Shown: positions 268 to 53,639 of the stretch, piece by piece
How positions within the stretch are numbered: the first letter of the stretch is position 1
Layout of the letters: every line of letters begins with the position of its first letter
Assembly (NCBI GenBank): GCA_030765235.1
Contig: JAVCCW010000029.1
Location: 311,666-375,665 of the forward strand
Direction of reading: 5' to 3'
DNA length: 64,000 nt
From: Candidatus Gorgyraea atricola
Lineage (GTDB): Bacteria > Omnitrophota > Gorgyraeia > Gorgyraeales > Gorgyraeaceae
The notes under the pieces: model-generated
Database searches by the model: none
The model's input: the letters and a program-made list of their open reading frames with translations, nothing else
What the model was told of the DNA's origin: nothing
Position numbers and translations under genes: made by a program

Positions 268-405
268 ATGTTTGTTGTGAGTTGTGAGGGTTGGTTGTGT
301 GTTGTGTGTCGGGTTGTGGGGATGGGTAGTGAGTTCTAACCCCACCCACATAACTCATAACTCGACTCACAACCCACAACTCACCCCAACCCTCACAACA
401 TTAAT
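268..405. repeat. long GT-rich/AC-rich inverted repeat (imperfect hairpin, ~60-nt arms) between gap and glgA
   Basis: gttgtgagttgtgagggttggttgtgtgttgtgtgtcgggttgtgggg...ccccacccacataactcataactcgactcacaacccacaactcaccccaaccctcacaac; arms built of GTTGTGA-like 7-mers. Confidence 0.6.
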
Positions 406-7296: not shown

Positions 7297-8904
7297 ATGC
7301 ATGAGGACATGCTTAAAATTATAAGGGCCGTCTTTAAAAAGGCGGCCCTTTTGTTTTTATTGTTAGGTCTTTTAGGATTCAGGCCTGATTATGGGGATGC
7401 GATCGTGGCTGGCTCCATTGGCGAGCCGCGCACACTCATTCCTATATTAGCGTCTGATTCTGCGTCAGGCGCGATCTGTGGACTTGTATTCAATGGCCTT
7501 GTGAAATACGATAAGGATCTGAATTTAGTCGGAGACCTGGCTGAGACATGGGATGTCTCAGAAGACGGGCTTGAGATCACATTTTATTTAAGAAAAGGTG
7601 TAAGGTGGCACGACGGCGCGCCTTTTACAGCAAGGGATGTGGAATTTACTTATAAAAGCCTGATCGATCCGAATGTAAGGACAGCGTATAGCGGTGATTT
7701 TCAGATGGTTGAGAAATTCGATGTCTTGGATGACTATAGATTAAAGGTCACGTATAAAGAGCCGTTCTCGCCAGGCCTTTCGAGCTGGGGCATGAATATT
7801 ATGCCGCGACATTTGCTTGAGAAAGAGGATCTAAATAAAACAGAATTTTCAAGATCGCCCATTGGCACAGGGCGATATAAATTTAGTCTCTGGAAAACAG
7901 GAGAGAGACTTGAGCTCGTCTCGAATCATGATTATTTTGAAGGGCGGCCGCATATTGATAGATATATTTACAGGATCATACCTGACCAGGCAACCATGTT
8001 TCTGGAGCTGCGCTCAGAGGGCGTAGATTATATTGGGCTTACGCCTTTACAATTCAGCCGCCAGACACAGACAAAATTTTTCAAAGAAGATTTTCAAAAG
8101 TTTCGCTTTCCGAGTTTTGGTTATACATATCTGGGATACAGTTTAAAGGATCCGAGGTTTCAGGATCTAAAGGTCAGGCAGGCAATAAATTATGCAATAG
8201 ATAAGGAAGAGATTATTCGCGGCGTACTTCTGGGTCTTGGTAGGGTTGCAACAGGACCTTTTTTGCCAGAGTCATGGGCATACAATAAGGATGTTAAGGC
8301 CATAGGTTATAATCCTGATAAGGCGAGGCTGCTTTTGAAGGAAGCTGGGTGGCAGGATAGAGATGGTGACGGGATTTTAGAAAAAGATGGCGGGAAATTT
8401 TCATTTACTGTTGTTACAAATCAGGGAAATGAGCAGCGCAGGATGACAGCTGAGATTATTCAGCGCAGGCTCAAAGAAGTAGGCATTGAGCTTAAGATAA
8501 AGATAATCGAATGGAGTTCTTTTGTGAGTGAATTTATTGACAAGCGCAGGTTTGAAGCTGTGCTTTTAGGCTGGGGCCTTGGCCAGGACCCTGATATGTA
8601 TGATATCTGGCATTCGTCAAAGACAAAAGAGGGCGAATTTAATTTTGTTGGGTATGGAAATAAAGAGGTGGATGGGTTGCTTTTAGAAGGCCGCCGCACT
8701 TTTGATCAAAACGAACGCGCAAGGATCTATCACAGGATCCATGAGATCCTTTACGAGGAGCAGCCGTATCTATTTTTATACGTTCCAGACAGTCTGCCTA
8801 TTATTCATGGCAGGTTTAAAGGCATTGAGGTCGGCGCAGCAGGCATTGGCCATAATTTCATAGAGTGGTACGTGTCGAAAAGCGAACAGAAATACATAAG
8901 ATAG
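7297..8904 (+). CDS. ABC transporter substrate-binding protein, family 5 (oligopeptide/dipeptide/nickel)
   Basis: 535-aa SBP_bac_5-like protein with N-terminal signal/anchor, followed by OppBCDF-type genes. Confidence 0.8.
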
Positions 8905-8938: not shown

Positions 8939-9910
8939 ATGATTAAATATATTTTTCGTAGAATAATAGGGCTAATTCCACTTCTCCTGGGTATAACCAT
9001 AATTACCTTTGCAGTGATACATCTTGCGCCAGGTAAGCCCACTGACATGGAGACGCAATTTAATCCAAAGGTCTCGCTCGAGGCCAGGCAGAGGATGATG
9101 ACTTTGTATGGGCTGGATAAGCCTATTCATGTGCAGTATACAGATTGGCTCAAAAGGCTTTTGCGATTTGATTTCGGTGTTTCTTTTGTTGATTCAAGGC
9201 CAGTCATTAAAAAGATAGGTGAGCGCATACCAGTTACGCTTGGCATAAATCTTGCATCAATGATCTTGATCTTATTGATCGCTATTCCTATAGGCGTGAG
9301 CTCTGCAGTAAAAGAGAAAAGTTTCTATGATAGATCAATGACAGTGTTCGTGTTCATTGGTTTTGCCATACCTACTTTCTGGCTGAGCTTGATGCTTATG
9401 GATCTTGTAGGTGTGCGGTGGGGGCTTTTGCCTGTCTCAGGCATAAAGTCGTTGGAGTTCGATAAGTTTAATTTTGTTGAGAAGGTGATTGATATTGCGC
9501 GGCATTTAATCCTGCCTGTTATTGTTTCAGCATTCGGAGGCCTTGCTGGGATCTCACGATATATGCGCAGTAACATGGTGCATGTCTTGAAACAGGATTA
9601 TATCAGGACTGCAAGGGCAAAGGGTCTGAAGGAAAAAGATGTGATTTATAAGCACGCTCTAAAGAATGCGCTTTTGCCAGTCGTGACTATTTTAGGATTA
9701 TCAGTGCCAGGCCTTATAGGCGGCAGTGTTATATTTGAATCGATTTTCAGCATCCCTGGTATGGGCAGACTTTTTTACGAATCAGTAATGGCTCGGGATT
9801 ATCCTGTGATTATGGGAGTCTTAGTGATTGGCGCAGCACTGACCTTATTAGGAAATCTCCTGGCAGATGTCTCTTACGCAGCAGTTGATCCAAGGATAAA
9901 GTATGAATAA
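8939..9910 (+). CDS. ABC transporter permease (OppB/DppB type)
   Basis: [33 protein letters not shown]-terminus typical of DppB/OppB; multiple TM segments. Confidence 0.85.
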
Positions 9911-10715: not shown

Positions 10716-10761
10716 CTCCTCCTCTGTAGGCCAGGTTTAAACCTGGCCTACAGAGGAGGAG
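10716..10761. repeat. perfect palindrome CTCCTCCTCTGTAGGCCAGGTTTAAACCTGGCCTACAGAGGAGGAG (REP-like; related copy at 18955-19012)
   Basis: seen directly; centred on GTTTAAAC. Confidence 0.6.
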
Positions 10762-14162: not shown

Positions 14163-14263
14163 AGGCAAAGGCCTTTGCGACAAATATGTAGGTCACACAA
14201 TAGCAGCTTATAGCAGCTGTAGGGCACACTTCAGTGTGCCAAAGATATTTAAAATTTCATATT

Positions 14264-15562
14264 ATGTCATATACAATTACTGAAAAAATATTACTGAAGC
14301 ATACTGACAAGAAATCTATCGTGCCTGGGGATTTTATCTACGCAGAGATTGATATGGCGCTTGGGAATGATATTACCGCGCCTATTGCCATAAAGGAATT
14401 CGAGTCTGCCGGAGCCAGGAAAGTTTTTAACAGAAAAAAGATCGCGCTTGTACCTGATCACTTTACGCCTGCCAAGGATAAGAAGAGCGCGGACCAGGCA
14501 AAGATCCTTAAGGAATTTGCCAGAAAGCATAATATAGAGAACTATTTTGAAATAGGCCGCATGGGTGTGGAGCACGTGCTTTTGCCAGAGCAGGGACTTG
14601 TCGGGCCGGGCCAACTCATTATAGGTGCTGATTCTCATACCTGTACGTATGGAGCACTTGGCGCATTCTCAACAGGTGTTGGCTCTACGGATCTTGCAGC
14701 AGGTTTCATAACAGGACGCGTATGGTTAAAGGTGCCTGAGAGCATGAAATTTATTTATTATGGCAAGCCTGGAAAATGGACAGGCGGCAAGGATTTTATT
14801 TTACACACTATTGGAGATATTGGCGTAGATGGCGCATTGTACAGGGCCATGGAATTTACAGGCGAGGCCATACGAAGGCTACCAATGGATGATAGATTTG
14901 CGATGTGTAACATGGCGATCGAGGCTGGTGGGAAGTCTGGGATTATTGAGGCGGATGATGCGACTATTAAATATTGCCTAGCGTCAGGGACAAGGGACCC
15001 CATACGAAAATCAAAGATTTCGTACGGGGCAGGCATGGGACAAGGGACAAGGAGTGATAAAGACGCCAGGTATTGTGAGACGCGGGAATATGATGTTAGT
15101 AAGATCGAGCCGCAGGTTTCTGCGCCGCATTTGCCTAGCAATGCCGGGGCTGTGAGCAAGTTTAAGAAAATAAATATAGATCAGTCAGTGATCGGCTCAT
15201 GCACAAATGGCAGGATAAGTGATCTGAGGATAGCTGCAAAGATCTTGAAAGGCAAAAAGGTTGATTCAGGAGTCAGGCTGATAATCATACCGGCTACACA
15301 AAAGATATATGTACAGGCAATGGAAGAAGGCCTTGCAGATATCTTTATTGATTCAGGCGGTGTTTTTTCAACGCCCAGCTGTGGGCCATGTCTTGGCGGA
15401 CACTTGGGTATTTTAGCAAAAGGCGAACGCGCAATCGCCACCACGAACAGAAACTTCCGCGGCAGAATGGGGCATCCTGAGAGCGAAGTCTATCTCTCGA
15501 ACCCAGCTGTAGCTGCGGCCAGCGCAATAAAAGGAAGGATAGCTCATCCTGATGAAATTTAA
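14264..15562 (+). CDS. leuC: 3-isopropylmalate dehydratase large subunit (aconitase family; homoaconitase-type not excluded)
   Basis: aconitase-family catalytic domain; SCTNGR, CGPCLG motifs; followed by leuD, leuB. Confidence 0.8.
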   Translation: MSYTITEKILLKHTDKKSIVPGDFIYAEIDMALGNDITAPIAIKEFESAGARKVFNRKKIALVPDHFTPAKDKKSADQAKILKEFARKHNIENYFEIGRMGVEHVLLPEQGLVGPGQLIIGADSHTCTYGALGAFSTGVGSTDLAAGFITGRVWLKVPESMKFIYYGKPGKWTGGKDFILHTIGDIGVDGALYRAMEFTGEAIRRLPMDDRFAMCNMAIEAGGKSGIIEADDATIKYCLASGTRDPIRKSKISYGAGMGQGTRSDKDARYCETREYDVSKIEPQVSAPHLPSNAGAVSKFKKINIDQSVIGSCTNGRISDLRIAAKILKGKKVDSGVRLIIIPATQKIYVQAMEEGLADIFIDSGGVFSTPSCGPCLGGHLGILAKGERAIATTNRNFRGRMGHPESEVYLSNPAVAAASAIKGRIAHPDEI

Positions 15563-17127: not shown

Positions 17128-18156
17128 ATGTCTAAAAAATATAATGTTGCAATAGTCGGAGCTACTGGGGTAGTGGGTAGCGAGTTTATAAAGGTATTGG
17201 AAGAGAGACGGTTTCCTGTTAAGGAGATTCGTTTGCTGGCATCTGGCCGCTCAAAAGGCAAGATGCTAAAGTTTTATGGAAAGGATTATGAGGTACAGGA
17301 GCTTACCAGGGATTCCTTTAAAGGCATTGAGGTCGCACTGTTTTCAGCAGGAGGAGGCATAAGTAAGGAATTTGCGCCTATTGCTGCAAAAGCAGGAGCG
17401 ATTGTAGTAGATAATTCCAGTGCATGGAGAATGGATCCGGAGGTGCCACTAGTAGTTCCTGAGGTAAATCCTGGCGCAATAAAGAGACACAAGGGTATTA
17501 TTGCAAATCCAAATTGCTCGACTATACAGATGGTAGTTGTCTTAAAGCCGATTCACGACGCTGCAAAGATAAAACGCGTAGTTGTATCCAGCTACCAGTC
17601 TGTATCTGGATGGGGCAAAGAGGCGGTAGATCAGCTTGATGCGGAGATAGAATCATACGTTAGCAACAAGCAACAAGCAACAAGCAACAGGGGGAGTAAA
17701 ATAAAGCGAGTGTTGCCGGCGCAGATCGCGTTTAATGTGATTCCGCATATAGATGTATTCTTGCCAAATAGATACACCAAAGAAGAGATGAAGATGGTAA
17801 ATGAGACTCAGAAGATCATGGAAGATACCAGCATCAAAGTCACTGCGACCTGCGTACGAGTGCCAGTAGTGATCTCACATGCAGAGGCAGTCAATGTTGA
17901 GACTGAGAAAAAATTAAGCGCGGACGAGGCTACCGAGATCCTGAAAAAGGCACCTGGCGTTGAGGTAATAGACGATATATCAAAAGAAAAATACCCCCTT
18001 CCTATAGATGCCGCAGGAAAAGATCCAAGTTATGTTGGCAGGATTCGCGAAGATGAATCCATAAAGAACGGTCTTAATCTCTGGATTGTCAGCGACAATC
18101 TGCGCAAGGGCGCAGCGCTAAACGCAGTCCAAATCGCCGAGCTCTTGATAGCTTGA
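17128..18156 (+). CDS. asd: aspartate-semialdehyde dehydrogenase
   Basis: VAIVGATGVVG Rossmann start; ANPNCSTIQMVV active-site Cys; carries an in-frame heptamer-repeat insert. Confidence 0.9.
   Translation: MSKKYNVAIVGATGVVGSEFIKVLEERRFPVKEIRLLASGRSKGKMLKFYGKDYEVQELTRDSFKGIEVALFSAGGGISKEFAPIAAKAGAIVVDNSSAWRMDPEVPLVVPEVNPGAIKRHKGIIANPNCSTIQMVVVLKPIHDAAKIKRVVVSSYQSVSGWGKEAVDQLDAEIESYVSNKQQATSNRGSKIKRVLPAQIAFNVIPHIDVFLPNRYTKEEMKMVNETQKIMEDTSIKVTATCVRVPVVISHAEAVNVETEKKLSADEATEILKKAPGVEVIDDISKEKYPLPIDAAGKDPSYVGRIREDESIKNGLNLWIVSDNLRKGAALNAVQIAELLIA
17662..17694 (+). repeat. tandem heptamer repeat (AGCAACA)x4 + GGGGG inside asd, in frame (encodes SNKQQATSNRG)
   Basis: agcaacaagcaacaagcaacaagcaacaggggg. 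Confidence 0.65.
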
Positions 18157-21192: not shown

Positions 21193-23750
21193 AGTATAGT
21201 TTAATCAAAAATTTTGATAACTCAGTAGAGCAGTTTAAGGATAAGGTTGCTATTTTATCTGGTTCAACGTCACTGACTTATGCAGAGCTTGGCGAGAAGA
21301 TAAAAAATACCGCATGTTACATATCTTCATTAGGCATTGAAAAAGGTGACAGGGTTGCGATCATTCTTGATAATGGGCCAGAGTTTGCGAGCGTATTTTT
21401 TGCATTGGCTTATATAGGCGCGGTCGCGGTTCCTCTTGATCCAAGGATGACAGAGAAGGATGTAGCAAACATCATGTCTGACTCTGGCGCAAAGATCCTT
21501 CTTACAATTGATAAAATAAAAGAACTAGACCCACCGCAAGTTTTTGAGAAAGCCATAGTAGAACCAGACGACCTTATAGTGCTGCTTTACACCTCTGGCA
21601 CCACAGACCTTCCAAAAGGTGTAATGCTCACGCATAAGAATCTGTGCTCGAATTTTAATTCTTTGAGGAAGATGAAGATCTTTACGCCAAAGGATACGAT
21701 ATTATCAATTCTCCCGCTTTACCATTCCTATTCACTCATGACTACGCTTATCGCGCCTCTTTTTTCAGGTTCAAAGATCGTGTATGTCTCTAGTGACTGG
21801 CCAGAGAAATTAGCTGACTATATAAAGGAAGCTGGAACAACCGTATTTATAGGTGTACCGCAGATTTATCACATGATGCATTCGCGCATGATTAAAAAGC
21901 TTAGCAGTATAGAAGGCCTTAAGGGGCTATTTGTAAAATCAGTAATAGCTCTTGGCCTTACAAAGGTACTTTTGCCCAAGGTCAAAAACGCCTTTGGAAA
22001 AAGGCTTCGCTTTTTTATAAGCGGCGGCGCAAAGCTGGATGCTACAGTGGCAAGGGATTTTTTCAAGCTTGGCTTTAAGATATTGGAAGGCTATGGCCTG
22101 ACTGAAACTTCTCCTGTTGCAAGTATAAATCCAGTGAAAAGGCCAAAGATAGGGTCGATTGGCACGCCTGTTCCTGATGTAAGGATGAGGATCTTGAATC
22201 CAGATTCCAGCGGCGTAGGCGAGATCGTGATCCAGGGCCCAAATGTCATGAAAGGCTACTATAAGAATGAGGAAAAGACAAAAGAGGTGCTTAAGAATAA
22301 CTGGTTTTATTCAGGCGACCTGGGATACAAGAATAGAGATGGATATTTTTATATTACAGGCAGGTCTAAAGAGGTGATAGTACTTAGCTCAGGCAAGAAT
22401 ATCTATCCTGAGGAGATTGAAAAGCATTATTCGAATACGTCCTACATAAAAGAAATGTGTGTTATAGGCGTATTAAAGGGAAAAGGCAATAGTAAGCTTG
22501 AATATCTGCATGCGATTGTTGTACCAGACCTTGAGTTTTTTAAAGAGCGCGGCGAAATGAATGTGAATCAAGTGTTAAAGGCCACATTTGATAATCTCTC
22601 TAAAGACATACCTGGCTATAGGCATATCATGGGATTTACTGTGACAAAAGAGGCTCTGTCGCGTACTGTGCTGGGCAAGCTCAAGCGATATGAGATCGAG
22701 AAAAAATTCCTTCCTGTTATTTTAGAAGAGACAGAGGAAGAAAAAGCTGTGAGTCCAGAAGATCAGGCTTTGCTTCAATCTGATACAGCGAAAAGGCTAA
22801 TAGCGTGCATAAAGGATGCGCTTGAGATAAAAGGGGATGCGCATCTTAATGACAGTATTGAGCTTGATCTGGGAGTGGATTCACTTACCAGGGTAGAGCT
22901 TGTTCTGGCTGTTGAGAAGTGTTTTAACATAGAGATATCGGATGAGATGATCGCGGCGGGGATATTTACGGTTAAGGATATTCTTACGAAAGTTGAAGAA
23001 CTCTTGGCAAGTGACAAGCGACAAGTGACAAGCGACAAGGGCGTGGAAAGAGCTATTCACTGGGCTGGGATTTTGAAGCAGGAATTGGCAAAGGATTTTC
23101 AGGACAAGATATCGTTGGAGTTGAGCTGGATAGATTATGTGTTTACTTTTATAATTAAAGGGTGCGTTGGTTTATTTTTCAGGATTTTTTATAGGCTCAA
23201 GGTAGAAGGCGCGGAAAAGATACCTAAGAAAGGGCCTTATGTTTTATGTGTGAATCATACTAGTTTCCTGGACGGGTTTATTGTACTATCTGGTGTGCCG
23301 CTTAGGACAGAACTTGAGTTATTCTTTATTGGATTCAGGAGATATTTTATAGTGCCTATCATAAGGAATCTTGTAAGGCGCTCAAGGATCATTCCTGTAG
23401 ATGCCACGCAGATCATAGAGGCAATGCAAGGCTCTGCGTATATCCTGAAGCACAATAAGGCCCTCTGTATATTCCCTGAGGGAGAGCGTTCTATTGACGG
23501 CGAGGTAAAGGAATTCAAGAAAGGTATTGGCATAATTGCAAAAGAACTAAATGCGCCACTTGTACCGGTTTATATCAATGGCGCTTTCAAAGCCTGGCCC
23601 AGGACACAGAAATTTCCAAAACTACACCCTATTAGCATAAAATTTGGCAGTCCTGTTGCACCTGATGTGTTAGCCAAGAAAGGCGACGCAAAAGACGAAC
23701 ACGAAGCAATTGCTGCAGGTATAAGAGGAGAGGTAATTAACCTTGGGTAA
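21186..23750 (+). CDS. tri-domain fusion: acyl-CoA/acyl-ACP synthetase (AMP-binding) + acyl carrier (PP-binding) domain + 1-acyl-sn-glycerol-3-phosphate acyltransferase (Aas-like)
   Basis: LLYTSGTTDLPKGV AMP motif; DSLTRVEL phosphopantetheine site; NHTSFLD (HX4D) and FPEGERS acyltransferase motifs; 854 aa. Confidence 0.75.
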   Translation: MVEYSLIKNFDNSVEQFKDKVAILSGSTSLTYAELGEKIKNTACYISSLGIEKGDRVAIILDNGPEFASVFFALAYIGAVAVPLDPRMTEKDVANIMSDSGAKILLTIDKIKELDPPQVFEKAIVEPDDLIVLLYTSGTTDLPKGVMLTHKNLCSNFNSLRKMKIFTPKDTILSILPLYHSYSLMTTLIAPLFSGSKIVYVSSDWPEKLADYIKEAGTTVFIGVPQIYHMMHSRMIKKLSSIEGLKGLFVKSVIALGLTKVLLPKVKNAFGKRLRFFISGGAKLDATVARDFFKLGFKILEGYGLTETSPVASINPVKRPKIGSIGTPVPDVRMRILNPDSSGVGEIVIQGPNVMKGYYKNEEKTKEVLKNNWFYSGDLGYKNRDGYFYITGRSKEVIVLSSGKNIYPEEIEKHYSNTSYIKEMCVIGVLKGKGNSKLEYLHAIVVPDLEFFKERGEMNVNQVLKATFDNLSKDIPGYRHIMGFTVTKEALSRTVLGKLKRYEIEKKFLPVILEETEEEKAVSPEDQALLQSDTAKRLIACIKDALEIKGDAHLNDSIELDLGVDSLTRVELVLAVEKCFNIEISDEMIAAGIFTVKDILTKVEELLASDKRQVTSDKGVERAIHWAGILKQELAKDFQDKISLELSWIDYVFTFIIKGCVGLFFRIFYRLKVEGAEKIPKKGPYVLCVNHTSFLDGFIVLSGVPLRTELELFFIGFRRYFIVPIIRNLVRRSRIIPVDATQIIEAMQGSAYILKHNKALCIFPEGERSIDGEVKEFKKGIGIIAKELNAPLVPVYINGAFKAWPRTQKFPKLHPISIKFGSPVAPDVLAKKGDAKDEHEAIAAGIRGEVINLG
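23010..23043 (+). repeat. tandem heptamer repeat (GTGACAA/GCGACAA)x4 + GGG in frame inside the Aas-like gene (encodes SDKRQVTSDKG)
   Basis: agtgacaagcgacaagtgacaagcgacaagggc. Confidence 0.65.
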
Positions 23751-23792
23751 CTTCGTAAGTTGTCCATTTGGACAACTTACGAAGTTACCCAA
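23743..23792. terminator. near-perfect 23-bp hairpin TTGGGTAACTTCGTAAGTTGTCC-loop-GGACAACTTACGAAGTTACCCAA overlapping the stop of the Aas-like gene
   Basis: seen directly; no T-run, so terminator versus structural element is unresolved. Confidence 0.5.
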
Positions 23793-23811
23793 GGTAGAAC
23801 AGGGGGATTGT

Positions 23812-33380: not shown

Positions 33381-34555
33381 AGAATAAAAAGGTGGTTTTA
33401 GCGTATTCAGGCGGGTTAGATACTTCGGTGGCTGTGAGATGGCTTACAGATAAGGGCTATGATGTTGTTGCCTACATGGCTGATGTGGGCCAGGGCGGGA
33501 ATTTTCAGAAGCTCAAGAAAAGGGCCTTGTCTACAGGTGCCTCAAAGGTCGTGATCGAGGATCTCAAAGACGAATTTGCAAAAGACTTTGCCTTTCAGTC
33601 GTTAAAGGCAGGCGCAGTCTATGAATCAAAGTATCTATTGGCAACCGCGCTTTCAAGGCCGATCATCGCAAAGGGCCTGGTGCAGACCGCGAAAAAGGAA
33701 AAGGCTAGTTTTATCGCGCATGGCTGTACAGGAAAAGGCAATGACCAGGTAAGGTTCGAGGTCACTGCAATGGCGCTTGCGCCTGAGCTCGGCATACTGG
33801 CGCCGCTCAGGGAATGGAATATGTATTCCAGAGACGAAGAAATAGAGTATGCAAAGGAAAAAGGCATAGACATAGATGTTACGAAAAAAAGCCCTTATAG
33901 TTTAGATCAGAATATTTGGGGAATAAGCATTGAGTGTGGCGTGCTAGAAGATCCATGGAATGAGCCGCCAGAAGACGCGTATAAAATGAGTATTGATCCA
34001 AAAATGGCGCCAAATAAATCAACATATGTAGAGATCGAGTTTAAAAATGGCATACCAGTAAAGATCAATGGAAAAAAATACGCGGCAGTGGATCTGGTAA
34101 TGAAGCTCAATAAGATCGGCGGCAAAAATGGCATAGGCAGGACTGATCTTGTTGAGAATAGACTCGTTGGCATTAAATCAAGGGAGATATATGAGGCGCC
34201 AGGGGCGTGGATCTTACATAAGGCGCATAAGGATTTAGAGGCGCTTGTGCTCGACAGGGAGCTGTTGCATTTTAAGGAAGTTATTTCCTTAAAATACGCG
34301 GAGCTTATATATTACGGCTTATGGTTTACACCTTTAAAAAAGGCGCTGGACGGATTTATAAACCAGACGCAGAAGAATGTAACAGGCAGTGTGAAGATGA
34401 AGCTGTTAAAGGGTCTTGCGAGTGTAGTAGGGAGAAAATCAGCGCACTCACTTTATAAAAAAGAAATGGCAACATATGACCCAGGCGATAAGTTCGACAG
34501 GACCATTGCGGAAGGATTTATTAAAGTGTGGGGAATGCCGTATAAAAAGGTGTAA
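33377..34555 (+). CDS. argG: argininosuccinate synthase
   Basis: VVLAYSGGLDTSV PP-loop. Confidence 0.9.
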   Translation: MKNKKVVLAYSGGLDTSVAVRWLTDKGYDVVAYMADVGQGGNFQKLKKRALSTGASKVVIEDLKDEFAKDFAFQSLKAGAVYESKYLLATALSRPIIAKGLVQTAKKEKASFIAHGCTGKGNDQVRFEVTAMALAPELGILAPLREWNMYSRDEEIEYAKEKGIDIDVTKKSPYSLDQNIWGISIECGVLEDPWNEPPEDAYKMSIDPKMAPNKSTYVEIEFKNGIPVKINGKKYAAVDLVMKLNKIGGKNGIGRTDLVENRLVGIKSREIYEAPGAWILHKAHKDLEALVLDRELLHFKEVISLKYAELIYYGLWFTPLKKALDGFINQTQKNVTGSVKMKLLKGLASVVGRKSAHSLYKKEMATYDPGDKFDRTIAEGFIKVWGMPYKKV

Positions 34556-34617
34556 GGTGTCAAGTGTCAGGTGTCAGGGAAGGTGCCTTGACACCTGACA
34601 CCTTTAACCTGACACTA
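34548..34617. repeat. heptamer-repeat hairpin (GGTGTCA-type units x4 + GGG, then reverse-complement arm) between argG and argH
   Basis: aaggtgtaaggtgtcaagtgtcaggtgtcagggaaggtgccttgacacctgacacctttaacctgacact. Confidence 0.6.
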
Positions 34618-37176: not shown

Positions 37177-37964
37177 ATAAGCTAAAATTTACGAAAATGG
37201 TTGGGGCTGGGAATGATTTTGTCTTGATTGATATTAGGGACAAGAGACAAGGAACAAGGGACAAGGGCTGGTCTAGGGTTGCGCAGGATTTATGTCAGAG
37301 GAAGACTGGGGTTGGTGCGGATGGGTTGCTTGTACTGGAGAAGTCTAAAAGAGCAGATTTTAGGATGCGCATATTCAATGCTGATGGCAGTGAAGCAGAG
37401 ATGTGTGGCAATGGCCTAAGGTGCGCTGCACTATACGTAGGCAAAAAAGGCAAGGCAAAGGTTGAGACAAAAGCAGGTCTTTATGAAGCGACCATTACAG
37501 GTAAAAATAGAGTTAAGATAAAGATGGAAGAACCCAAGGATTTGAAATCAGGTTTTCCGATCAGAGTAAATGATAGGCGCATAAGAGTGAGTTATGTTGA
37601 TACTGGTGTGCCGCATACAGTGGTTTTTGTGCAGGGCATTGAAAAGATAGACGTTGATTCTATTGGCAGAAGTATAAGATATCATAAAGAATTCAAGCCG
37701 CGTGGCACAAATGTTGATTTTGTCGAAATTATAGACGATAAAAATATAAAGATGCGGACGTATGAGCGCGGAGTAGAAGGGGAGACGCTTGCCTGTGGCA
37801 CGGGAGCAGTGGCGGCGGCGATTATAAGTAGTGTCAGGTGTCAGGTGTCAGGTGTCAATGTGCACACAAAAGGTGGGATTTTAAAGGTTTATATTGGTCA
37901 TAAAGGAGTATATTTAGAAGGAGAAGCGCGAAAGGTTTACCAGGGAGAGGTGAATTATGTTTGA
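37173..37964 (+). CDS. dapF: diaminopimelate epimerase
   Basis: FTKMVGAGNDFVLID, two catalytic Cys (MCGNGLRC, LACGTGAVAAA); carries two in-frame heptamer-repeat inserts. Confidence 0.85.
   Translation: MNKLKFTKMVGAGNDFVLIDIRDKRQGTRDKGWSRVAQDLCQRKTGVGADGLLVLEKSKRADFRMRIFNADGSEAEMCGNGLRCAALYVGKKGKAKVETKAGLYEATITGKNRVKIKMEEPKDLKSGFPIRVNDRRIRVSYVDTGVPHTVVFVQGIEKIDVDSIGRSIRYHKEFKPRGTNVDFVEIIDDKNIKMRTYERGVEGETLACGTGAVAAAIISSVRCQVSGVNVHTKGGILKVYIGHKGVYLEGEARKVYQGEVNYV
37247..37278 (+). repeat. in-frame heptamer repeat (GGGACAA/GAGACAA/GGAACAA)x4 + GGGC inside dapF (encodes RDKRQGTRDKG)
   Basis: gggacaagagacaaggaacaagggacaagggc. Confidence 0.65.
37830..37858 (+). repeat. in-frame heptamer repeat (GGTGTCA)x4 inside dapF (encodes VRCQVSGVN)
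   Basis: agtgtcaggtgtcaggtgtcaggtgtcaa. Confidence 0.65.
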
Positions 37965-39557: not shown

Positions 39558-40709
39558 ATGGGATTTGAATTAAGTGAGAGAGTAAAAAGGCTTCCGCCTT
39601 ATTTGTTTGTGGAGATCGATAAGGCGAAACGAAAAGCCAGGGCTGAAGGAAGAGACATAATAGATCTTGGGATCGGGGATCCTGATGAGGCCTCGCCAAA
39701 AGAGGTGGTGGATGTTTTCTGTAAAGCAGCAGGAGATCCAAAAAATCAACGCTATCCTTTGGATGAAGGGATACCAGCCCTAAGGAATAAAATAGCAGAG
39801 TGGTACAAGACCAGATTCAGCGTTACGCTGGATCCTGATAAAGAGGTGCTTGTTCTTATAGGCTCAAAAGAGGGAATAGCACATATGCCTTTGGCATTTA
39901 TTAATCCAGGAGATGTCTCGCTTGTGCCTGATCCTTGCTACCCTCCGTATAAAAGCGGGACTATTCTTGCCGGAGGAAAAGTGCATACAATGCCTCTTTT
40001 AGAGGAGAATAATTTTTTACCGGATTTAAAGCCTGTAAAAAAAGCAAAACTGCTCTATATAAATTATCCGAATAATCCTACGAGTGCTGTGTGTGACAAA
40101 AGATTTTTTGAAGACGCAGTGCTTTTCGCAAGAAAAAACAATGTTATTGTTGCGCATGACGCGGCATATTCTGAAATAGCATTTGATGGATATAGACCTG
40201 AGAGCTTCTTAAAAGTAGCTGGCGCAAAAGAACTGGGCGTTGAATTTCATTCTCTGTCCAAGACCTGTAATATGACTGGATGGCGCATTGGCTTTGTGTG
40301 CGGTAATGAGAAAATTATATCAGCCATAGCCAAAGTAAAATCCAACATCGACTCGGGCGCGTTCAATGCTATTCAAGTCGCTGGTATAACTGCTCTGGAT
40401 ATAGCAGAGAAACATACGCAGAGGATGAATAAGATCTATCAAGAGCGGCGTGACGTGCTTGTAGACGGCCTGAATAAAATTGGCTGGGCAACAAGAAAGC
40501 CAAAAGCAACTTTTTATGTCTGGACTCGGATCCCAAAGCAGTATAAATCATCTATTGAATTTGCCGAAATGGTACTTGAAAAAGCAAATATAGTTATTAC
40601 TCCAGGCATAGGCATGGGAGAAAGCGGCGAAGGATACGTGCGTATGGCGCTCACTGTTTCAAAGGAGCGGATGTTGGAGGCGGTGGAGAGGCTGAGGAAG
40701 ATACTTTAA
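39558..40709 (+). CDS. dapL: class-I PLP aminotransferase, probably LL-diaminopimelate aminotransferase
   Basis: RLPPYLFVEIDKAK N-terminus typical of DapL-family enzymes; follows lysA-dapF-dapA-dapB with no dapD/dapE in the window. Confidence 0.55.
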   Translation: MGFELSERVKRLPPYLFVEIDKAKRKARAEGRDIIDLGIGDPDEASPKEVVDVFCKAAGDPKNQRYPLDEGIPALRNKIAEWYKTRFSVTLDPDKEVLVLIGSKEGIAHMPLAFINPGDVSLVPDPCYPPYKSGTILAGGKVHTMPLLEENNFLPDLKPVKKAKLLYINYPNNPTSAVCDKRFFEDAVLFARKNNVIVAHDAAYSEIAFDGYRPESFLKVAGAKELGVEFHSLSKTCNMTGWRIGFVCGNEKIISAIAKVKSNIDSGAFNAIQVAGITALDIAEKHTQRMNKIYQERRDVLVDGLNKIGWATRKPKATFYVWTRIPKQYKSSIEFAEMVLEKANIVITPGIGMGESGEGYVRMALTVSKERMLEAVERLRKIL

Positions 40710-40710
40710 A

Positions 40711-40782
40711 GTGACAAGGGACAAGAGACAAGAGACAAGGGAGTTAGATACTCCTTGTCCCATGTCCCTTGTTGCTTGTCCC
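40711..40782. repeat. heptamer-repeat hairpin element (GTGACAA GGGACAA GAGACAA GAGACAA GGGA - loop - reverse-complement arm), upstream of folK
   Basis: gtgacaagggacaagagacaagagacaagggagttagatactccttgtcccatgtcccttgttgcttgtcc. Confidence 0.65.
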
Positions 40783-40789
40783 TGATATT

Positions 40790-41233
40790 ATGCATTGCTA
40801 CATAGGCATTGGCTCAAATCTAGGCAATAGACGCAAGAACATTGATGCTGCGATAGAGAGATTGCAGCAGGCAAAAGAGATCGAGGTCAAAAAAATCTCG
40901 AGTGTATACGAGACAGAGCCAGTGGGCGGGCCAAAACAGTCTGATTATCTGAACGCTGCCATAGAAATCAACACAACATTTGGACCAAGAGAGCTTCTTG
41001 CAGCTTTACGCGAGATAGAAGATCATCTTGACAGAGAAAGATCAGTCAAGGATGGACCGCGTACCATTGATCTAGACATATTGACTTACGGTGATGAAAA
41101 AATAGATGAACCAGATCTAAAGATCCCACATCCAAGAATGAATGAACGAGAGTTTGTGCAGAAGCCTTTGAGGGATATCCAGGGAGGGACAAGAAGTGAC
41201 AAGGGACAAGAGACAAGGGACAAGGGGGTTTAG
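40790..41233 (+). CDS. folK: 2-amino-4-hydroxy-6-hydroxymethyldihydropteridine pyrophosphokinase (HPPK)
   Basis: YIGIGSNLGNRRKNI and TIDLDIL motifs; C-terminal 16 residues (GGTRSDKGQETRDKGV) are encoded by the downstream repeat element. Confidence 0.8.
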   Translation: MHCYIGIGSNLGNRRKNIDAAIERLQQAKEIEVKKISSVYETEPVGGPKQSDYLNAAIEINTTFGPRELLAALREIEDHLDRERSVKDGPRTIDLDILTYGDEKIDEPDLKIPHPRMNEREFVQKPLRDIQGGTRSDKGQETRDKGV

Positions 41234-41261
41234 ATGCTCCTTGTCCCATGTCCCTTGTTGC
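41183..41261. repeat. second copy of the GACAA-type heptamer hairpin, same orientation, downstream of and overlapping the 3' end of folK
   Basis: gggacaagaagtgacaagggacaagagacaagggacaagggggtttagatgctccttgtcccatgtcccttgttgc; loop TTAGAT as in the first copy. Confidence 0.65.
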
Positions 41262-44506: not shown

Positions 44507-44578
44507 CCCCTCGGGGGAGGGGACAGCGACCATTTTTTCTAGATAAAAAATGGTCGCTGTCCCCCTTTCCCCGAGGGG
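44507..44578. terminator. long imperfect palindrome CCCCTCGGGGGAGGGGACAGCGACCATTTTTT-ctaga-TAAAAAATGGTCGCTGTCCCCCTTTCCCCGAGGGG
   Basis: ~33-bp arms; likely bidirectional terminator between the small-protein genes and uvrA. Confidence 0.55.
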
Positions 44579-47496: not shown

Positions 47497-47500
47497 AAAT

Positions 47501-47863
47501 GTAACCCAAAAGCAGGCCTGCCTGCCCCGTACCAAATCGACCTGCCCCGTATCTTGCCGAAGGCAATGGTATGGGGAGATTTTGGTATGGGGGTCGCTCA
47601 GGGGAAAATTTCCCCATCCAGTATTGTGTGGCACGGGGTGTCCTGTGAGTGGGCCCCTCCGCCCGGTGTGGATCCTCCCACTCACAGGACACCCCGCGCC
47701 ACACTTATCCCATAAAAGGCTAAATTTTCAATTCGCCTGCCCCGTTCCAAATTCTTAAATATCAGCAAACAATCTATTAGAATTGTACGCGATTAGTTAC
47801 AAATAATAAATAGCTTATCTATCAGAATTTGGAACGGGGCTCCCAGGCCTCCTTTTGGGTTAC
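47501..47863. mobile_element. ~360-bp non-coding element with ~38-bp terminal inverted repeats (GTAACCCAAAAGCAGGCCTGCCTGCCCCGTACCAAAT ... GAATTTGGAACGGGGCTCCCAGGCCTCCTTTTGGGTTAC) and a GC-rich structured core
   Basis: TIRs seen directly; inner TIR portion (CCCCGTTCCAAATTC) matches the 24088-24191 element; core has a long hairpin gtggcacggggtgtcctgtgagtggg...cccactcacaggacaccccgcgccac. Confidence 0.5.
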
Positions 47864-47900
47864 ACTGTCATAGAAATATCTTCAAATATCAGCTCTTTTA

Positions 47901-47980
47901 TGGTATAATAAAAACAAATTGAGGAGAGGTTGTTTCTGCGAAGCCAAGCATGAAAATAGCTTGGCGAAGCAGAATTTTTT
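47901..47980 (+). promoter_or_regulatory. extended -10 promoter TGGTATAAT followed by a leader stem-loop + U-run (CTGCGAAGCCAAGC-atgaaaata-GCTTGGCGAAGCAG-AATTTTTT) ahead of the 47990 gene
   Basis: intrinsic-terminator-like structure in the 5' UTR; loop carries an ATG opening a 21-codon uORF with three Trp codons. Confidence 0.35.
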
Positions 47981-47989
47981 GGGTGGATT

Positions 47990-48757
47990 ATGAGGAAGAT
48001 TGGAAAAGGGTATAAACTCATTCTAATATCTATACTAATGGGGGGGGCGTTTTTATCGTCGACTCTTGCCTACCCAGTGTATGGCTTTAACCTAAGACCA
48101 GCACTTAAGTTTCAAGGTCAAAACTCTCTTGGTGAAAATTTACAAAAACTTCGTGATACAGCGGGAAAAATTGACGATGAAATTAGTAAAATTTTTATCT
48201 GCGCAGAAACGCTTTCCGAGGGCATTTCTGCGCCAAATTACTTTCATGATAAATGCATTAAAAACGAGATGTTAATCCTTGAGAAAGGTAAAAAACGTAT
48301 TTATTTAACGCGACAATTAGCTCATCTACTAGGACATTTGTTAAATGAAGTTTCTTTGTTAATTAATCATACAGTGACCAAAGATATAGCAATGCGTTAT
48401 ACAATCAGTATATGCAGAAAATTAGATGTTCTTGCAAGACTAAAAGAAAAAGATTTAATGTTAAGGTTGTTGCAAGGTAACGAAGTATTCAATATATTAG
48501 GTTATCCACCAAATAAAGGACGTATACCAAAAATAGAAAATCGTGATGCCGTTATTTCAAAAGCTCGTGAGTTAATAACTGTGTTTAAAAATGAAGTCAT
48601 AAAGGACGAGCTGTTTGAGCTAGTAAGACTCTGTGACAGAGATCCAAATTTAGTTTTGAAGAAATGGTACGGAAACGAAAATGAGGTAGCTTCAAATTCC
48701 AATATTTCTTATAAGGTAAACTTTGGTTCGGATGAAATTCATAGAACAGGATTGTGA
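47990..48757 (+). CDS. hypothetical secreted protein
   Basis: signal peptide MRKIGKGYKLILISILMGGAFLSSTLA; LRP tripeptide just after the predicted cleavage site, as in the 24355/25626 leaders; AT-rich gene. Confidence 0.5.
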   Translation: MRKIGKGYKLILISILMGGAFLSSTLAYPVYGFNLRPALKFQGQNSLGENLQKLRDTAGKIDDEISKIFICAETLSEGISAPNYFHDKCIKNEMLILEKGKKRIYLTRQLAHLLGHLLNEVSLLINHTVTKDIAMRYTISICRKLDVLARLKEKDLMLRLLQGNEVFNILGYPPNKGRIPKIENRDAVISKARELITVFKNEVIKDELFELVRLCDRDPNLVLKKWYGNENEVASNSNISYKVNFGSDEIHRTGL

Positions 48758-48795
48758 TTGGTAAGTTAGTATGGTGGAATCGAATGCCTGTCTTC

Positions 48796-48973
48796 TGCAC
48801 CACTCAGACCAAGGGGGCATGGGGCTTCTTTTACGCGAGCGGGCACGGTGCTAAAGTAGACAAAACAGTCACTGACTGTTTTGTCTACTTTAGTGAGCGA
48901 GCGTAAAAAAAGAGCAAAATTTTCACGCTGGGAAAATTTTGCGTCCCCAGGACCCCTTGGTCTGGGTGGTGCA
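48796..48973. ncRNA. ~180-nt nested palindromic element / candidate structured RNA (21-bp outer stem enclosing three hairpins, one identical to the 4842-4880 hairpin)
   Basis: outer TGCACCACTCAGACCAAGGGG / CCCCTTGGTCTGGGTGGTGCA; inner cttttacgc/gcgtaaaag, aaagtagacaaaacag/ctgttttgtctacttt, gcaaaattttc/gaaaattttgc. Confidence 0.4.
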
Positions 48974-49062
48974 AGAGGTGTTATGCGATATTTAGAGTAT
49001 TGCATGTCTACAGCTTTTTTCTCTTGCCTTAATTTCTGCTCAGTGGTATATTCATAGACAAG

Positions 49063-51547: not shown

Positions 51548-52165
51548 ATGTTCGAACTAATCCAAAAAGGTGGACCAGTGATGTACCCTATTGCATTGTG
51601 TTCAGTATTGGCTTTTGCCATAGTGATAGAGAGATTTTATTATCTTTACAAGGCAAAGATAGATACAAGAGATTTCATGAGCAACATAGAGATCACCATA
51701 AAGCGCAATAGGATAGCAGAGGCGATAAAGATCTGTGAAAAGACATCAGGCCCTATCGCCCATATAATCAAGGCAGGGATCTTAAAGCATGATAGGTCCA
51801 GGCAGGAGATAAGAGAATCTATTGAAGATGCTGGACATCAGGAAGTCCCGAGACTTGAAAGACACATAAGCCTTCTAGCAACAATAGCGCATATTGCGCC
51901 GCTTTTGGGACTATTGGGTACTGTTACAGGGATGGTCAGGGCATTTCAGATAATCCAGGAGAAATCTGTTTCATTTAATCCTGTGAGCCCTGGAGATTTA
52001 GCAGGCGGCATATGGGAGGCGCTTTTGACTACAGTAGCTGGTCTTATCGTTGCTATTCCTACAGTCGTGGCGTACAACTACATGGTTAGCAGAATCGAGG
52101 AGTTTGTACTTGAGATGGAACGCAGCGCAACAGAAGTGACAGATATGCTGTCACAGAGAGCGTAA
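51548..52165 (+). CDS. exbB: MotA/TolQ/ExbB proton-channel family protein
   Basis: MFELIQKGGPVMYPIALCSVLAFAIVIERF start and three TM helices. Confidence 0.85.
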   Translation: MFELIQKGGPVMYPIALCSVLAFAIVIERFYYLYKAKIDTRDFMSNIEITIKRNRIAEAIKICEKTSGPIAHIIKAGILKHDRSRQEIRESIEDAGHQEVPRLERHISLLATIAHIAPLLGLLGTVTGMVRAFQIIQEKSVSFNPVSPGDLAGGIWEALLTTVAGLIVAIPTVVAYNYMVSRIEEFVLEMERSATEVTDMLSQRA

Positions 52166-52180
52166 ACAAGGAGTTCTACT

Positions 52181-52582
52181 ATGAGATTTAAACGTCATGT
52201 CCAATTCAAAAAAGGTCATCTAGATATTGCGCCGCTTATTGATTGTATCTTTCTGCTTCTGATATTCTTTCTTCTGACATCAAATTTTATATTTCAGCCA
52301 GGAATAAAGATAGATCTTCCAAAGGCAGTAACAAGCGAAGTCGTGCAGGAGAATACACTGGTGATCACAGTAACATCGGATAACAGGTTTTATCTGAACG
52401 AGGCGCCCATAACCTTTGCTGAGTTAAAGAGTAAATTAAAGCGTATAGCTGGCAAGGACAAACCTATTTTAATAAAATCAGATAGGGATGTCGCATTAGG
52501 CAAGGTAGTGGGTATCTGGGATTTTTGCAGGGATATAGGTGTTACGCAGGTAAATATAGCAACGAACCAGGAAGTTAGATAG
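52181..52582 (+). CDS. exbD: ExbD/TolR biopolymer transport protein
   Basis: DIAPLIDCIFLLLIFFLLTS TM region; 133 aa. Confidence 0.85.
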   Translation: MRFKRHVQFKKGHLDIAPLIDCIFLLLIFFLLTSNFIFQPGIKIDLPKAVTSEVVQENTLVITVTSDNRFYLNEAPITFAELKSKLKRIAGKDKPILIKSDRDVALGKVVGIWDFCRDIGVTQVNIATNQEVR

Positions 52583-52589
52583 AGATGCA

Positions 52590-52716
52590 TAAATCCCAAA
52601 TCCCAATAATACCAATACTACCAAATAAATCCCAATCTCCAAATCCCAAACATGGTTTTGGATTTGGGATTTTGGATTTATTTGGGATTTGGTAGTATTG
52701 GGATTTGGGATTTTTT
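52590..52716. repeat. ~125-nt imperfect palindrome built of AATCCCA heptamer repeats (arms ~60 nt) ending in a T-run, between exbD and tonB
   Basis: aatcccaaatcccaataataccaatactaccaaataaatcccaatctccaaatcccaaa-catgg-ttttggatttgggattttggatttatttgggatttggtagtattgggatttgggatttttt. Confidence 0.65.
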
Positions 52717-52720
52717 AAAT

Positions 52721-53377
52721 ATGTTACTAAAAGACCGAAATCTAAACATTGCGATAATAGTATCCGCATCGTGGCATCTTGTCTGCATGTTCTCAGTAAG
52801 CCCTGTGCTTATATCGCCAGACATAAGAAAGGACTATGCAGCTGTTTCGTTCCTGGGCTCTATTTTAGAGAAGGTCAAACCTCTCCCGGAAAAATCAATA
52901 GATCTCGATAAGAGTTCTTTTGTAGAAAAACTAGAAGAGAGAAAGACAGTTCACTTAGATGATTTTGAGCTTGGTTTACCAGAGGTATTTTCAAGGTCTG
53001 CGCAGGCCAAGTCAGATAAAGAAGAAATTGATCTTTCAGTAAAGAAAGATGTTGGCTTTATTTCGGAACTGTATTCTAGTGATAGAGGAAAGAGGAGGCT
53101 TCGTTTTAAGGATGCCTTGGTTGGCGGCGATGCTAAAAATAGAACCCTGTTATATAAACCGGATTTACCAAAGTTACCATATTTACTCTCTGGTTTTTAT
53201 GAGGCGACTATCAGGTTTATAGTGTCAAAAGATGGCATCCTCAGAGATCCAGAGTGTATTGTCTCCAGTGGTTCTTCTGAGATAGATCAGCTTGCTATAA
53301 GATACATAAGAAGGTGGCAATTCGCGCCGCATGATGAGGATCAAGAGGGCATTGTGAGGATTAAATTTGGTGACTAG
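52721..53377 (+). CDS. tonB: energy transducer TonB-like protein
   Basis: N-terminal TM anchor IAIIVSASWHLVCMF; C-terminal RFIVSKDG...IRYIRRWQFAP resembles the TonB C-terminal domain; start moved to ATG 52721 because 52652 lies inside the palindrome. Confidence 0.65.
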   Translation: MLLKDRNLNIAIIVSASWHLVCMFSVSPVLISPDIRKDYAAVSFLGSILEKVKPLPEKSIDLDKSSFVEKLEERKTVHLDDFELGLPEVFSRSAQAKSDKEEIDLSVKKDVGFISELYSSDRGKRRLRFKDALVGGDAKNRTLLYKPDLPKLPYLLSGFYEATIRFIVSKDGILRDPECIVSSGSSEIDQLAIRYIRRWQFAPHDEDQEGIVRIKFGD

Positions 53378-53383
53378 TGACCT

Positions 53384-53617
53384 ATGGTAAGAATAGAATT
53401 CTCATTAGCTATTTCGCTATATCTTATTATAACAATATGCGTGATCTTGGCGGCGTGGATAATATGCGAAAAGAAAAAGACACTAGAATTATTTTCTTCC
53501 GAAAAGAATTTTTTCTGGCAATGCGATATATGCACTTATGTATATGTTGACAGTAGGCATGCTGCTATTTCAACATGTCCCAGGTGCGGGAGTTATAACA
53601 AGAAAGCTGACAGCTGA
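53384..53617 (+). CDS. small membrane-anchored zinc-ribbon protein
   Basis: one TM helix then CDIC...CPRCG; stop codon embedded in an AGCTGA heptamer repeat. Confidence 0.45.
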   Translation: MVRIEFSLAISLYLIITICVILAAWIICEKKKTLELFSSEKNFFWQCDICTYVYVDSRHAAISTCPRCGSYNKKADS

Positions 53618-53639
53618 TAGCTGAAAGCTGATAGCTAGC
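53604..53639 (+). repeat. tandem heptamer repeat (AGCTGAN)x5 overlapping the stop codon of the zinc-ribbon gene
   Basis: aagctgacagctgatagctgaaagctgatagctagc. Confidence 0.6.

Follow-up and report, generated by a model that had tools for sequence, protein, structure and literature searches.

Heptamer repeats are over-represented in bacteria (PMC4692102, citing Mrazek 2007), and several intergenic families have been characterized. Rehm et al. 2015 (PMC4692102) described repeats of the form (GGGANTN)n, with the unit GGGAATC in Xanthomonas and GGGGAYT in Nostoc, including 70-75 convergent stem-loop pairs in each Xanthomonas genome; these pairs are intergenic, lie nearer to the upstream stop codon than to the next start codon and mostly between co-directional open reading frames (ORFs), have no known function, and are poorly conserved in length and sequence between related species. 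Direct TAACTGA repeats are found in Beggiatoaceae, Cyanobacteria, and Bacteroidetes, and their horizontal spread has been suspected, by a mechanism that is not evident (MacGregor 2015, PMC4679880). The DNA considered here, a window of 64,000 nucleotides (contig JAVCCW010000029.1, positions 311,666 to 375,665) from the metagenome-assembled genome (MAG) of Candidatus Gorgyraea atricola, a member of the Omnitrophota from Ace Lake, Antarctica (PMC8542988), contains a long hairpin composed of AAATCCC/GGGATTT-type heptamers in the 138-nt spacer between exbD and tonB. The hairpin is probably one copy of a dispersed family of heptamer palindromes, comparable with miniature inverted-repeat transposable elements (MITEs) or with paired repetitive extragenic palindromic sequences (REPs, REPINs), that was inserted recently in the G. 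atricola lineage, and not a conserved regulator of TonB.

The initial annotation described a long heptamer hairpin with a terminal T-run in the exbD-tonB spacer; the sequence, the predicted fold, and an independent assembly (L281) all agree with this description. The folding energy that it proposed as a check is -67.6 kcal/mol for the RNA of the + strand (z -9.2), with none of 200 shuffled sequences as stable, and the values for RNA of the - strand and for single-stranded DNA are -67.1 kcal/mol (z -10.2) and -44.7 kcal/mol (z -10.5), respectively. Direct reading of the sequence shows that G is missing from the 5' arm, which is therefore unable to fold on itself, and that C is missing from the 3' arm. 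The 5' arm begins 8 nt past the exbD stop codon, and the two arms, which are separated by 3 nt, form 52 base pairs over 127 nt in the minimum free energy (MFE) fold, the base of the duplex consisting of 17 bp, a 1-nt bulge, and 6 bp; no G-U pair is present in the fold of either strand. Beyond the stem, UUUUAAA is unpaired, and the tonB AUG (52721-52723) is weakly paired with a CAU at 52588-52590. Tandem Repeats Finder assigns a period of 7 and 8.4 copies of degenerate units to each arm, and the heptamer AATCCCA occurs 20 times in the window compared with an expected 10.1, 8 of the 20 being inside the hairpin. The 5' arm alone has a tandem duplication of a 9-mer, whereas the 3' arm has a single copy of it and one additional heptamer, indicating that the arms differ by the gain or loss of whole units. 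The symmetry of the element is kept at the DNA level.

Close relatives of this element are present at loci that have no connection with TonB. A scan of metagenome contigs for the exact outer 18 nt (AAATCCCAAATCCCAATA) identified at least 120 contigs, and the matches listed have G+C contents of 0.31-0.67 and in about half of cases contain the partner arm of the hairpin. Comparison of the whole element by blastn with the metagenome loci that were fetched showed, among the matches listed, an identity of 91.6% over 119 nt with L144 (E 4e-43) and of 85.9% over 128 nt with L045 (E 4e-36), together with arm-level matches of 88-94% with L148, L135, L120, L115, L127, L043, L084, L099, and L128. None of the loci matched by blastn encodes ExbB, ExbD, or TonB. 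The element is upstream of accD in L144 (from a translation read by eye) and lies between an M16 peptidase gene and a radical SAM gene in L045; its neighbors are glnA and a glutamate-synthase-like gene in L120, rpsT and leuC in L115, and hemC and cobA-hemD in L084. The copies have a common interior that is not a simple heptamer repeat, with AATAAT(T)ACCAATACTACC and a phase shift of +4 at AAAT-AAATCCC. This interior recurs in L144, L045, L120, L099, and others, including contigs assigned to Armatimonadetes and to archaea resembling Syntrophoarchaeum. Repeats of the family are ~110-140 nt long, and an alignment of 14 members reveals the following plan: two AAATCCC units, a unit of the AATAnCC type, a variable unit, the +4 phase shift (AAAT-AAATCCC), two to three further units, and AAAC at the loop, all of this being mirrored in the other arm. 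As this irregular interior is common to unrelated loci, it would not be the product of independent slippage.

Among 25 members whose gene context could be classified, 17 are between co-directional genes, 6 between convergent genes, and 2 between divergent genes, and the spacer is often filled completely. Nesting occurs in both directions: small G+C-rich hairpins are found within the elements of L084/L043, L148, and L115, and elements are found within or around palindromes of the ACACAGAT type in L045, L115, and L099. The complementarity of the two arms within an element averages 0.75 (range 0.62-0.89), which by this rather crude measure is only slightly higher than the 0.64 between elements; at 0.89, the window copy is among the highest, which would fit a recent arrival in a family in which copies degenerate with age.

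The orthologous junctions indicate how the spacer arose. In a scan of orthologs with one genome per species, 37 loci were obtained (L001-L037, ExbD 54-89% identical), in 33 of which the exbD-tonB junction was measured; the order exbB-exbD-tonB is present in all 37 where the contig is long enough. The initial annotation proposed that the structure be sought in orthologous spacers, and the outcome was unfavorable to its proposal of a regulatory element: the gap between exbD and tonB is 21 nt or less in 17 of the 33 loci, and in the closest relatives found (ExbD 90-91% identical) the hairpin is missing and the junction is 8 nt (CGAGGAAC-ATG) or the genes overlap. The short or overlapping junctions of relatives indicate that the ancestral junction was tight and translationally coupled, and that the spacer in the window is a lineage-specific insertion. 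In tight junctions the last codons of exbD are mostly CAG GAG GT, which forms an AGGAGG-like Shine-Dalgarno motif (CAGGAGGT within the end of exbD), whereas the exbD tail in the window is CAG GAA GT. Where the junction does not exceed 20 nt, GAG and GAA occur at this position in a ratio of 10:2, compared with 5:8 in longer junctions (Fisher p 0.04, uncorrected for phylogeny), which suggests that the embedded motif relaxes after insertion into the junction. The tonB ATG in the window is 4 nt past the T-run, with no Shine-Dalgarno motif between them, and only a weak GGGA is left within the stem, 10 nt 5' of the AUG. An out-of-frame ATG, 2 nt past the exbD stop, may survive from the original start codon of tonB, since the starts of orthologous tonB genes are 0-10 nt past the exbD stop.

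Other palindromes have entered the same operon in related organisms. Junctions of 46-209 nt containing palindromes unrelated to that of the window are present at exbD-tonB in 11 of the 33 loci. These include an AGCYTTC/AGCTGAW heptamer hairpin with 1.5 units per arm in L018, ~3 in L009, and 5 in L014, and further unrelated hairpins in L001/L004, L008, L013, L019, L020, L025, and L026. The exbB-exbD junction has been invaded by palindromes in 7 of 35 loci, one being the 149-nt spacer of L001, which has an AGAAGWC/GACTTCT heptamer hairpin; invasion is thus not specific for the site ahead of tonB. The L001 hairpin (positions 3850-3982 of that locus) has ~12 units of the AGAAGWC type followed by ~4 inverted units, with a ΔG of -38.9 kcal/mol (z -5.5).

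The structure is not an artefact of assembly, because L281 crosses the whole hairpin and is 100% identical to the window over 1270 nt. Three short-read assemblies from the same population (L278-L280) match the window exactly and then break within the 5' arm, their contigs ending 35-55 nt past the exbD stop; because de Bruijn assemblies break at the palindrome, such elements would go unseen in many MAGs. The ATG of the apical loop opens a 241-aa ORF (52652-53377) in frame with tonB, and the public gene call in L281 uses this codon, giving a 241-aa product with a spurious hydrophobic extension of 23 residues. A tonB start at 52652, with an N-terminal extension, was considered and ruled out, all homologues beginning at the position of 52721 with MLLKDRNLNIA.

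The hosts of other family members are phylogenetically remote. Proteins flanking L045, L135, and L120 cluster at 90% identity or more with those of 'Armatimonadetes bacterium CG07_land_8_20_14_0_80_40_9' (the glutamate-synthase-like protein of L120 is ambiguous, and the taxon was settled by exact cluster look-up), and proteins flanking L128 and L107 cluster with Methanosarcinales, Halobacteriota, and Ca. Syntrophoarchaeum. L099 encodes an archaeal type IV pilin domain and a GvpD/KaiC-like ATPase and contains 4-5 such palindromes in 10 kb. Looser AAATCCC palindromes are present in Ca. Portnoybacteria (L059), Ca. Falkowbacteria (L154), and Vicinamibacterales (L116). The heptamer-periodic palindromes of L099 are at 800-1010, 2250-2600, 6390-6650, 8020-8110, and 9240-9400; one has a 240-nt centre of other small repeats and is ~200 nt from an IS1-like transposase ORF. 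The wider proposal that AAATCCC palindromes constitute an undescribed class of miniature mobile elements that moves between domains, without target-site duplication, inserting preferentially near stop codons or into the centres of palindromes and nesting in one another, is a tentative one and at present rather doubtful. Omnitrophota and bacteria of the candidate phyla radiation (CPR) are considered to be epibionts or predators of other cells, and if such a class exists, its sharing could record DNA exchange within consortia of this kind and the same process may generate the in-frame heptamer inserts in housekeeping genes of the G. atricola genome.

Several observations count against the interpretation of the hairpin as a recently inserted family member. 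The 64-kb window contains a single copy and 244 kb from the 37 related Omnitrophota contain none, so that mobility within the G. atricola genome is unsupported. Target-site duplications are absent at L144, L045, and L120, and in the window there is only an ambiguous ATG...ATG flank; a partner transposase was not found, in a search that did not extend to all ORFs of the window or to REP-associated tyrosine transposases. The taxon labels of the metagenome loci are the names of protein clusters of 90% identity, supplemented by one archaeal Pfam domain. In addition, about one-third of orthologous junctions have some hairpin, and a hairpin at that site could be mildly advantageous. In other searches, comparison of the element with PLSDB plasmids by blastn gave no match, and the 121 matches of the interior 15-mer ACCAATACTACCAAA in viral contigs include none in an AAATCCC context, which gives no hint of a phage carrier. 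The whole window has nothing at Rfam gathering scores; the matches obtained with an E-value threshold are far below gathering and are mostly to models of plant or animal microRNA precursors, as for a generic long hairpin. The repeat strings GGGATTTGGGATTT and AAATCCCAAATCCC were not found in the literature searched, and two genome papers on Omnitrophota in which Gorgyraea is named are silent on repeats of this kind.

Two alternatives attribute a selected function in RNA to the hairpin. In the initial annotation it was read as a terminator or a processing or attenuation structure, or as a possible regulatory RNA element; one form of this would be an intrinsic terminator that halts some polymerases after exbD and sets a low ratio of TonB to ExbBD. 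TonB is required in lower amounts than ExbB and ExbD, the 17-bp basal helix has CCC/GGG clamps (6 G-C pairs) and is followed by UUUUAAAU, with T6 compared with A3 on the mirror side, and 11 of the 33 orthologous junctions have some hairpin of 46 nt or more. However, the hairpin is absent from the closest relatives and has near-identical copies at unrelated loci; it is about five times longer than canonical terminators, it does not have the form of a compact terminator (stem ~5-20 bp, loop 3-8 nt), and it was not called in a scan with a terminator consensus. It also does not mark the end of a transcription unit followed by a gene with its own promoter, the tonB ATG being only 4 nt away with no promoter-like site found in between. 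The family extends to archaea, to which the bacterial mode of intrinsic termination is not applicable, palindromes of the class also occur with the G-rich arm first and without U-rich tails, and the other intercistronic hairpins of the window lack T-runs. Selection at the transcript level should favor the sense strand, with G-U replacing A-C, but of the 26 hairpins for which gene direction is known, 12 are more stable on the sense strand and 11 on the antisense strand, and the T content past the hairpin is 5.0 on the sense strand compared with 5.35 on the antisense strand across the class, the window copy being mildly asymmetric in this respect (T6 and A3). A terminator selected for this purpose is therefore unlikely. 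An element for RNA processing or stability, cut by RNase III or blocking 3' exonucleases and thereby leaving exbBD on a stable portion of the transcript and tonB on a less stable one, has precedents in the intercistronic REP hairpins and is in keeping with the extent of the duplex (52 bp in all, 17 bp unbroken), with the occurrence of the heptamer palindromes of the window soon after stop codons and between co-directional genes, and with the similar position of 17 of the 25 classifiable members, which often fill the spacer. The position after a stop codon is expected equally from tolerance of insertions in compact genomes, the site is not conserved, the sense-strand G-U signature is missing, and many copies are decaying, so that there is little reason to expect this role, for which the chances appear slim. 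Two other approaches to selection on the RNA were set aside. An apparent bias in arm order (C-rich arm first in 45-58, compared with 1-3, of the metagenome matches listed) was rejected because the search anchor (…AATA) favors it; when viral contigs were scanned with a 14-mer free of this bias, the two arm orders stood at 3:3, and pairs in the fetched loci that do not include the anchor gave ~6:3, judged by eye with no formal count. Covariation in a MAFFT alignment of 14 members (22 consensus pairs, 9 with double changes) was not used since the register is unreliable in repeated units.

The other alternatives concern the origin of the palindrome and its structure as DNA. If slippage expanded a heptamer microsatellite locally and a template switch inverted a copy of it, there would be no mobility and the likeness to sequences elsewhere would be convergent. 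The genome and its relatives show a strong enrichment of repeat arrays that is specific to period 7, the arms differ by whole units, and L018, L009, and L014 vary in unit number at a single site, as such a process would predict. It does not explain the presence of the irregular interior (AATAATACCAATACTACC, the AAAT phase shift, and AATCTCC) at unrelated loci with 86-94% identity, for which convergence is very unlikely, and two GACAAGR hairpins in the window are also copies of one element; a purely local origin is unlikely. A G-quadruplex or i-motif element, as proposed for GGGAATC and GGGGAYT repeats, is suggested by the fit of GGGATTT to (GGGANTN)n (PMC4692102) and by the four GGG tracts of the 3' arm, but is highly improbable: the loops between the tracts would be 15, 13, and 4 nt compared with the canonical 1-7 nt, half of the units have lost GGG, and the complementary C-rich arm is 3 nt away in a hairpin of -67.6 kcal/mol.

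It can be inferred that the element, as a member of the dispersed family, is mainly repetitive DNA of selfish or mutational origin, maintained at sites that tolerate it. An inserted family member may nevertheless have consequences for expression of the operon. Insertion into an ancestrally tight, translationally coupled exbD-tonB junction would have put 138 nt between the tonB AUG and the Shine-Dalgarno-like motif in the exbD tail; this motif may meanwhile have decayed from GAG to GAA. The mRNA is predicted to fold into a ~52-bp hairpin. Such folding would place the exbD stop and the tonB AUG a few nucleotides apart at the base of the helix, and a palindrome may do less harm in a coupled junction than any other insert, since its fold reunites these two codons; a ribosome ending on exbD would melt the weak AUG-CAU pairing. 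The duplex has the length of near-continuous double-stranded RNA expected of an RNase III substrate (~20 bp), cleavage being predicted only, and its >20 bp could act both as an RNase III site and as a barrier to 3' exonucleases; the hairpin followed by U4-6 could also terminate part of the transcripts. The net outcome would likely be a level of TonB below those of ExbB and ExbD. It is known that ExbB and ExbD exceed TonB, which is compatible with lowered TonB. The hairpin therefore probably lowers TonB output, judging from these predicted effects, and there is no evidence of selection for this. The initial suggestion that the hairpin uncouples TonB expression is retained in part: it intervenes between tonB and the Shine-Dalgarno-like motif of the exbD tail and some uncoupling or processing is plausible, but the idea of a dedicated regulator is not supported.

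The coordinates of the hairpin, its parts, the flanking genes, and the other heptamer hairpins of the window are collected in the following table.

Features of the exbD-tonB region and other heptamer hairpins of the window
Feature	Position	Strand	Remarks
exbB	51548-52165	+	Pfam PF01618, E 7e-34; upstream in conserved TPR-exbB-exbD-tonB string
exbD, 133 aa	52181-52582	+	Pfam PF02472, E 6e-30; product 100% identical to ExbD of the Ca. Gorgyraea atricola MAG; stop TAG 52580-52582
Out-of-frame ATG, 2 nt past exbD stop	52585-52587	+	forms ATG...ATG flank with 52721-52723
Long hairpin	52590-52716	+	exbD-tonB spacer; arms of AAATCCC/GGGATTT-type heptamers, T6 at end
5' arm	52591-52651	+	AAATCCC AAATCCC AATAATACC AATACTACC AAAT AAATCCC AATCTCC AAATCCC AAAC
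9-mer tandem duplication	52599-52624	+	AATAATACC / AATACTACC, 5' arm only; Tandem Repeats Finder period 9, 2.9 copies
Basal helix, 17 bp unbroken	52592-52608 / 52696-52712	+	MFE fold
Apical loop ATG, 3 nt	52652-52654	+	predicted fold
3' arm	52655-52716	+	GGGATTT-type units, near-mirror of 5' arm, terminal GGGATTTTTT; sequence and fold
T6 run	52711-52716	+	first three T belong to last heptamer; can pair with AAA 52591-52593
tonB (TonB_C-domain gene), 218 aa	52721-53377	+	Pfam PF03544, 27.8 bits (cut-off 24.6); tblastn to 33 orthologues
Heptamer hairpin	269-399		intercistronic, co-directional genes
Heptamer hairpin	34548-34615		argG-argH spacer, co-directional genes
Heptamer hairpins	40709-40783 and 41194-41258		either side of folK (HPPK), co-directional genes

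A period of 7 is the only long period enriched in the window, with 8 regions compared with none for periods of 6 and 8-12, and the window and related loci together have 25 period-7 arrays compared with 0-4 for periods of 5, 6, 8, and 9. All five heptamer hairpins of the window, that of the exbD-tonB spacer included, start within ~20 nt of a stop codon and end a few nucleotides before the next start. The initial annotation placed the exbD-tonB hairpin in one heptamer-repeat superfamily with the other intergenic hairpins; the common architecture and the period of 7 bear this out, but the sequence families of the other four differ from it and they have no T-run. The hairpins that flank folK are copies of one GACAAGR element, with an identical irregular 3' arm of 23 nt and nearly the same loop. 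Perfect intergenic palindromes with arms of 20-27 nt and 100% complementarity are present at 10716-10761, 23740-23795, 44519-44564, and 48851-48893, located at the preceding stop codon or 18-324 nt past it and all lacking a T-run; several such non-heptamer palindromes are positioned much as the heptamer hairpins are. A region of ~1.5 kb (47497-49062) has low coding capacity and dense, nested, G+C-rich inverted repeats (I2, I4, I6, and I11), and has neither an Rfam match nor a tRNA. A zinc-ribbon-like ORF of 77 aa has at its end an AGCTGAW heptamer array (53605-53636), which belongs to the heptamer family of the exbD-tonB hairpins of L009, L014, and L018; L281 stops just short of this array.

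Heptamer arrays are also found in frame within genes. In a leuC-like gene (14234-15562), encoding the large subunit of an isopropylmalate/citramalate isomerase, the block at 14985-15052 consists of a G+C-rich hairpin with two GGGACAA units on either side and adds 8-13 loop residues relative to PDB 4kp1_A and the L115 homologue. Other in-frame arrays are at 17662-17689 (asd), 23008-23039 (the linker of an aas-like gene), 37236-37267 and 37831-37857 (dapF), and 41194-41233 (the C terminus of folK), and their units in these conserved housekeeping genes are AGCAACA, GACAAGY, GACAAGR, and GTGTCAG. As 7 is not a multiple of three, a change in unit number within such a gene would shift the reading frame.

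For annotation, these results imply that the hairpin should not be recorded as a conserved TonB attenuator, and that the loop ATG misleads gene callers to a 241-aa TonB. More generally, members of the family sit within operons and break short-read assemblies, and it was unexpected that a heptamer palindrome of defined architecture would be common to very distant uncultured bacteria and archaea. If the proposed mobility is true, it offers a testable origin for the unexplained G-rich heptamers of Xanthomonas and Nostoc and a marker of gene flow in subsurface and lake consortia.

In comparison with known structures, the hairpin may be likened to Rho-independent terminators in its G-C-clamped helix with a 5' A-run and a following U-run, although three of the six residues of that run could instead pair with the A-run, but differs in its 52-bp stem (compared with 5-14 bp), its location within an operon 4 nt from a start codon, its lack of conservation, and the presence of its family in archaea. 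The short tandemly repeated repetitive (STRR) heptamers and small dispersed repeats of cyanobacteria, attributed to work by Mazel in 1990 and Elhai in 2008, reportedly include tandem heptamers in excess across the genome, with more than one family of units, and very small repeats that are nested in one another and in hairpin contexts; their units (CCCCAGT and others) and phylum are different, and the STRR are described mainly as direct arrays and not as palindromes of ~125 nt. The TAACTGA repeats (PMC4679880) are similar in being a specific intergenic heptamer common to distant phyla, but those repeats are direct, with one inverted case, lie a few nucleotides before start codons, and are proposed to be sites for a translational regulator. 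REPs, REPINs, and bacterial interspersed mosaic elements (PMC3116915, PMC3733652) are likewise short, non-coding, intercistronic hairpins without target-site duplications, are nested or clustered, and have been proposed to stabilize or terminate mRNA. The present element differs from them in that its ends are AAATCCC and GGGATTT with no GTAG/CGTC head, GTAG occurring only internally (52692-52695), and in that its halves, being free of G or of C, are not self-palindromic. As in MITEs, terminal inverted repeats are present, the whole element being an inverted repeat, but a target-site duplication is lacking; copies are found at unrelated loci in other organisms, with 4-5 per 10 kb in L099, but there is one in the window and none in the 37 related loci. 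The closest likeness is to the heptamers of Xanthomonas and Nostoc (PMC4692102), with which the element has in common a unit (GGGATTT) that fits (GGGANTN)n, two or more tandem units, and convergent intergenic arrays near the upstream stop codon. It is distinguished from these by its fixed irregular plan (9-mers and +4 shift), with copies of 86-92% identity at unrelated loci in other organisms, by the lack of the G-quadruplex geometry that Rehm et al. emphasize, and by its hosts, which include Omnitrophota, CPR bacteria, Acidobacteriota, an Armatimonadetes-labelled MAG, and archaea; the occurrence of this plan at unrelated loci identifies a dispersed element and not a plain microsatellite. The locus itself represents an ordinary insertion, of a kind that is best filed as the heptamer-periodic intergenic palindromic repeats.

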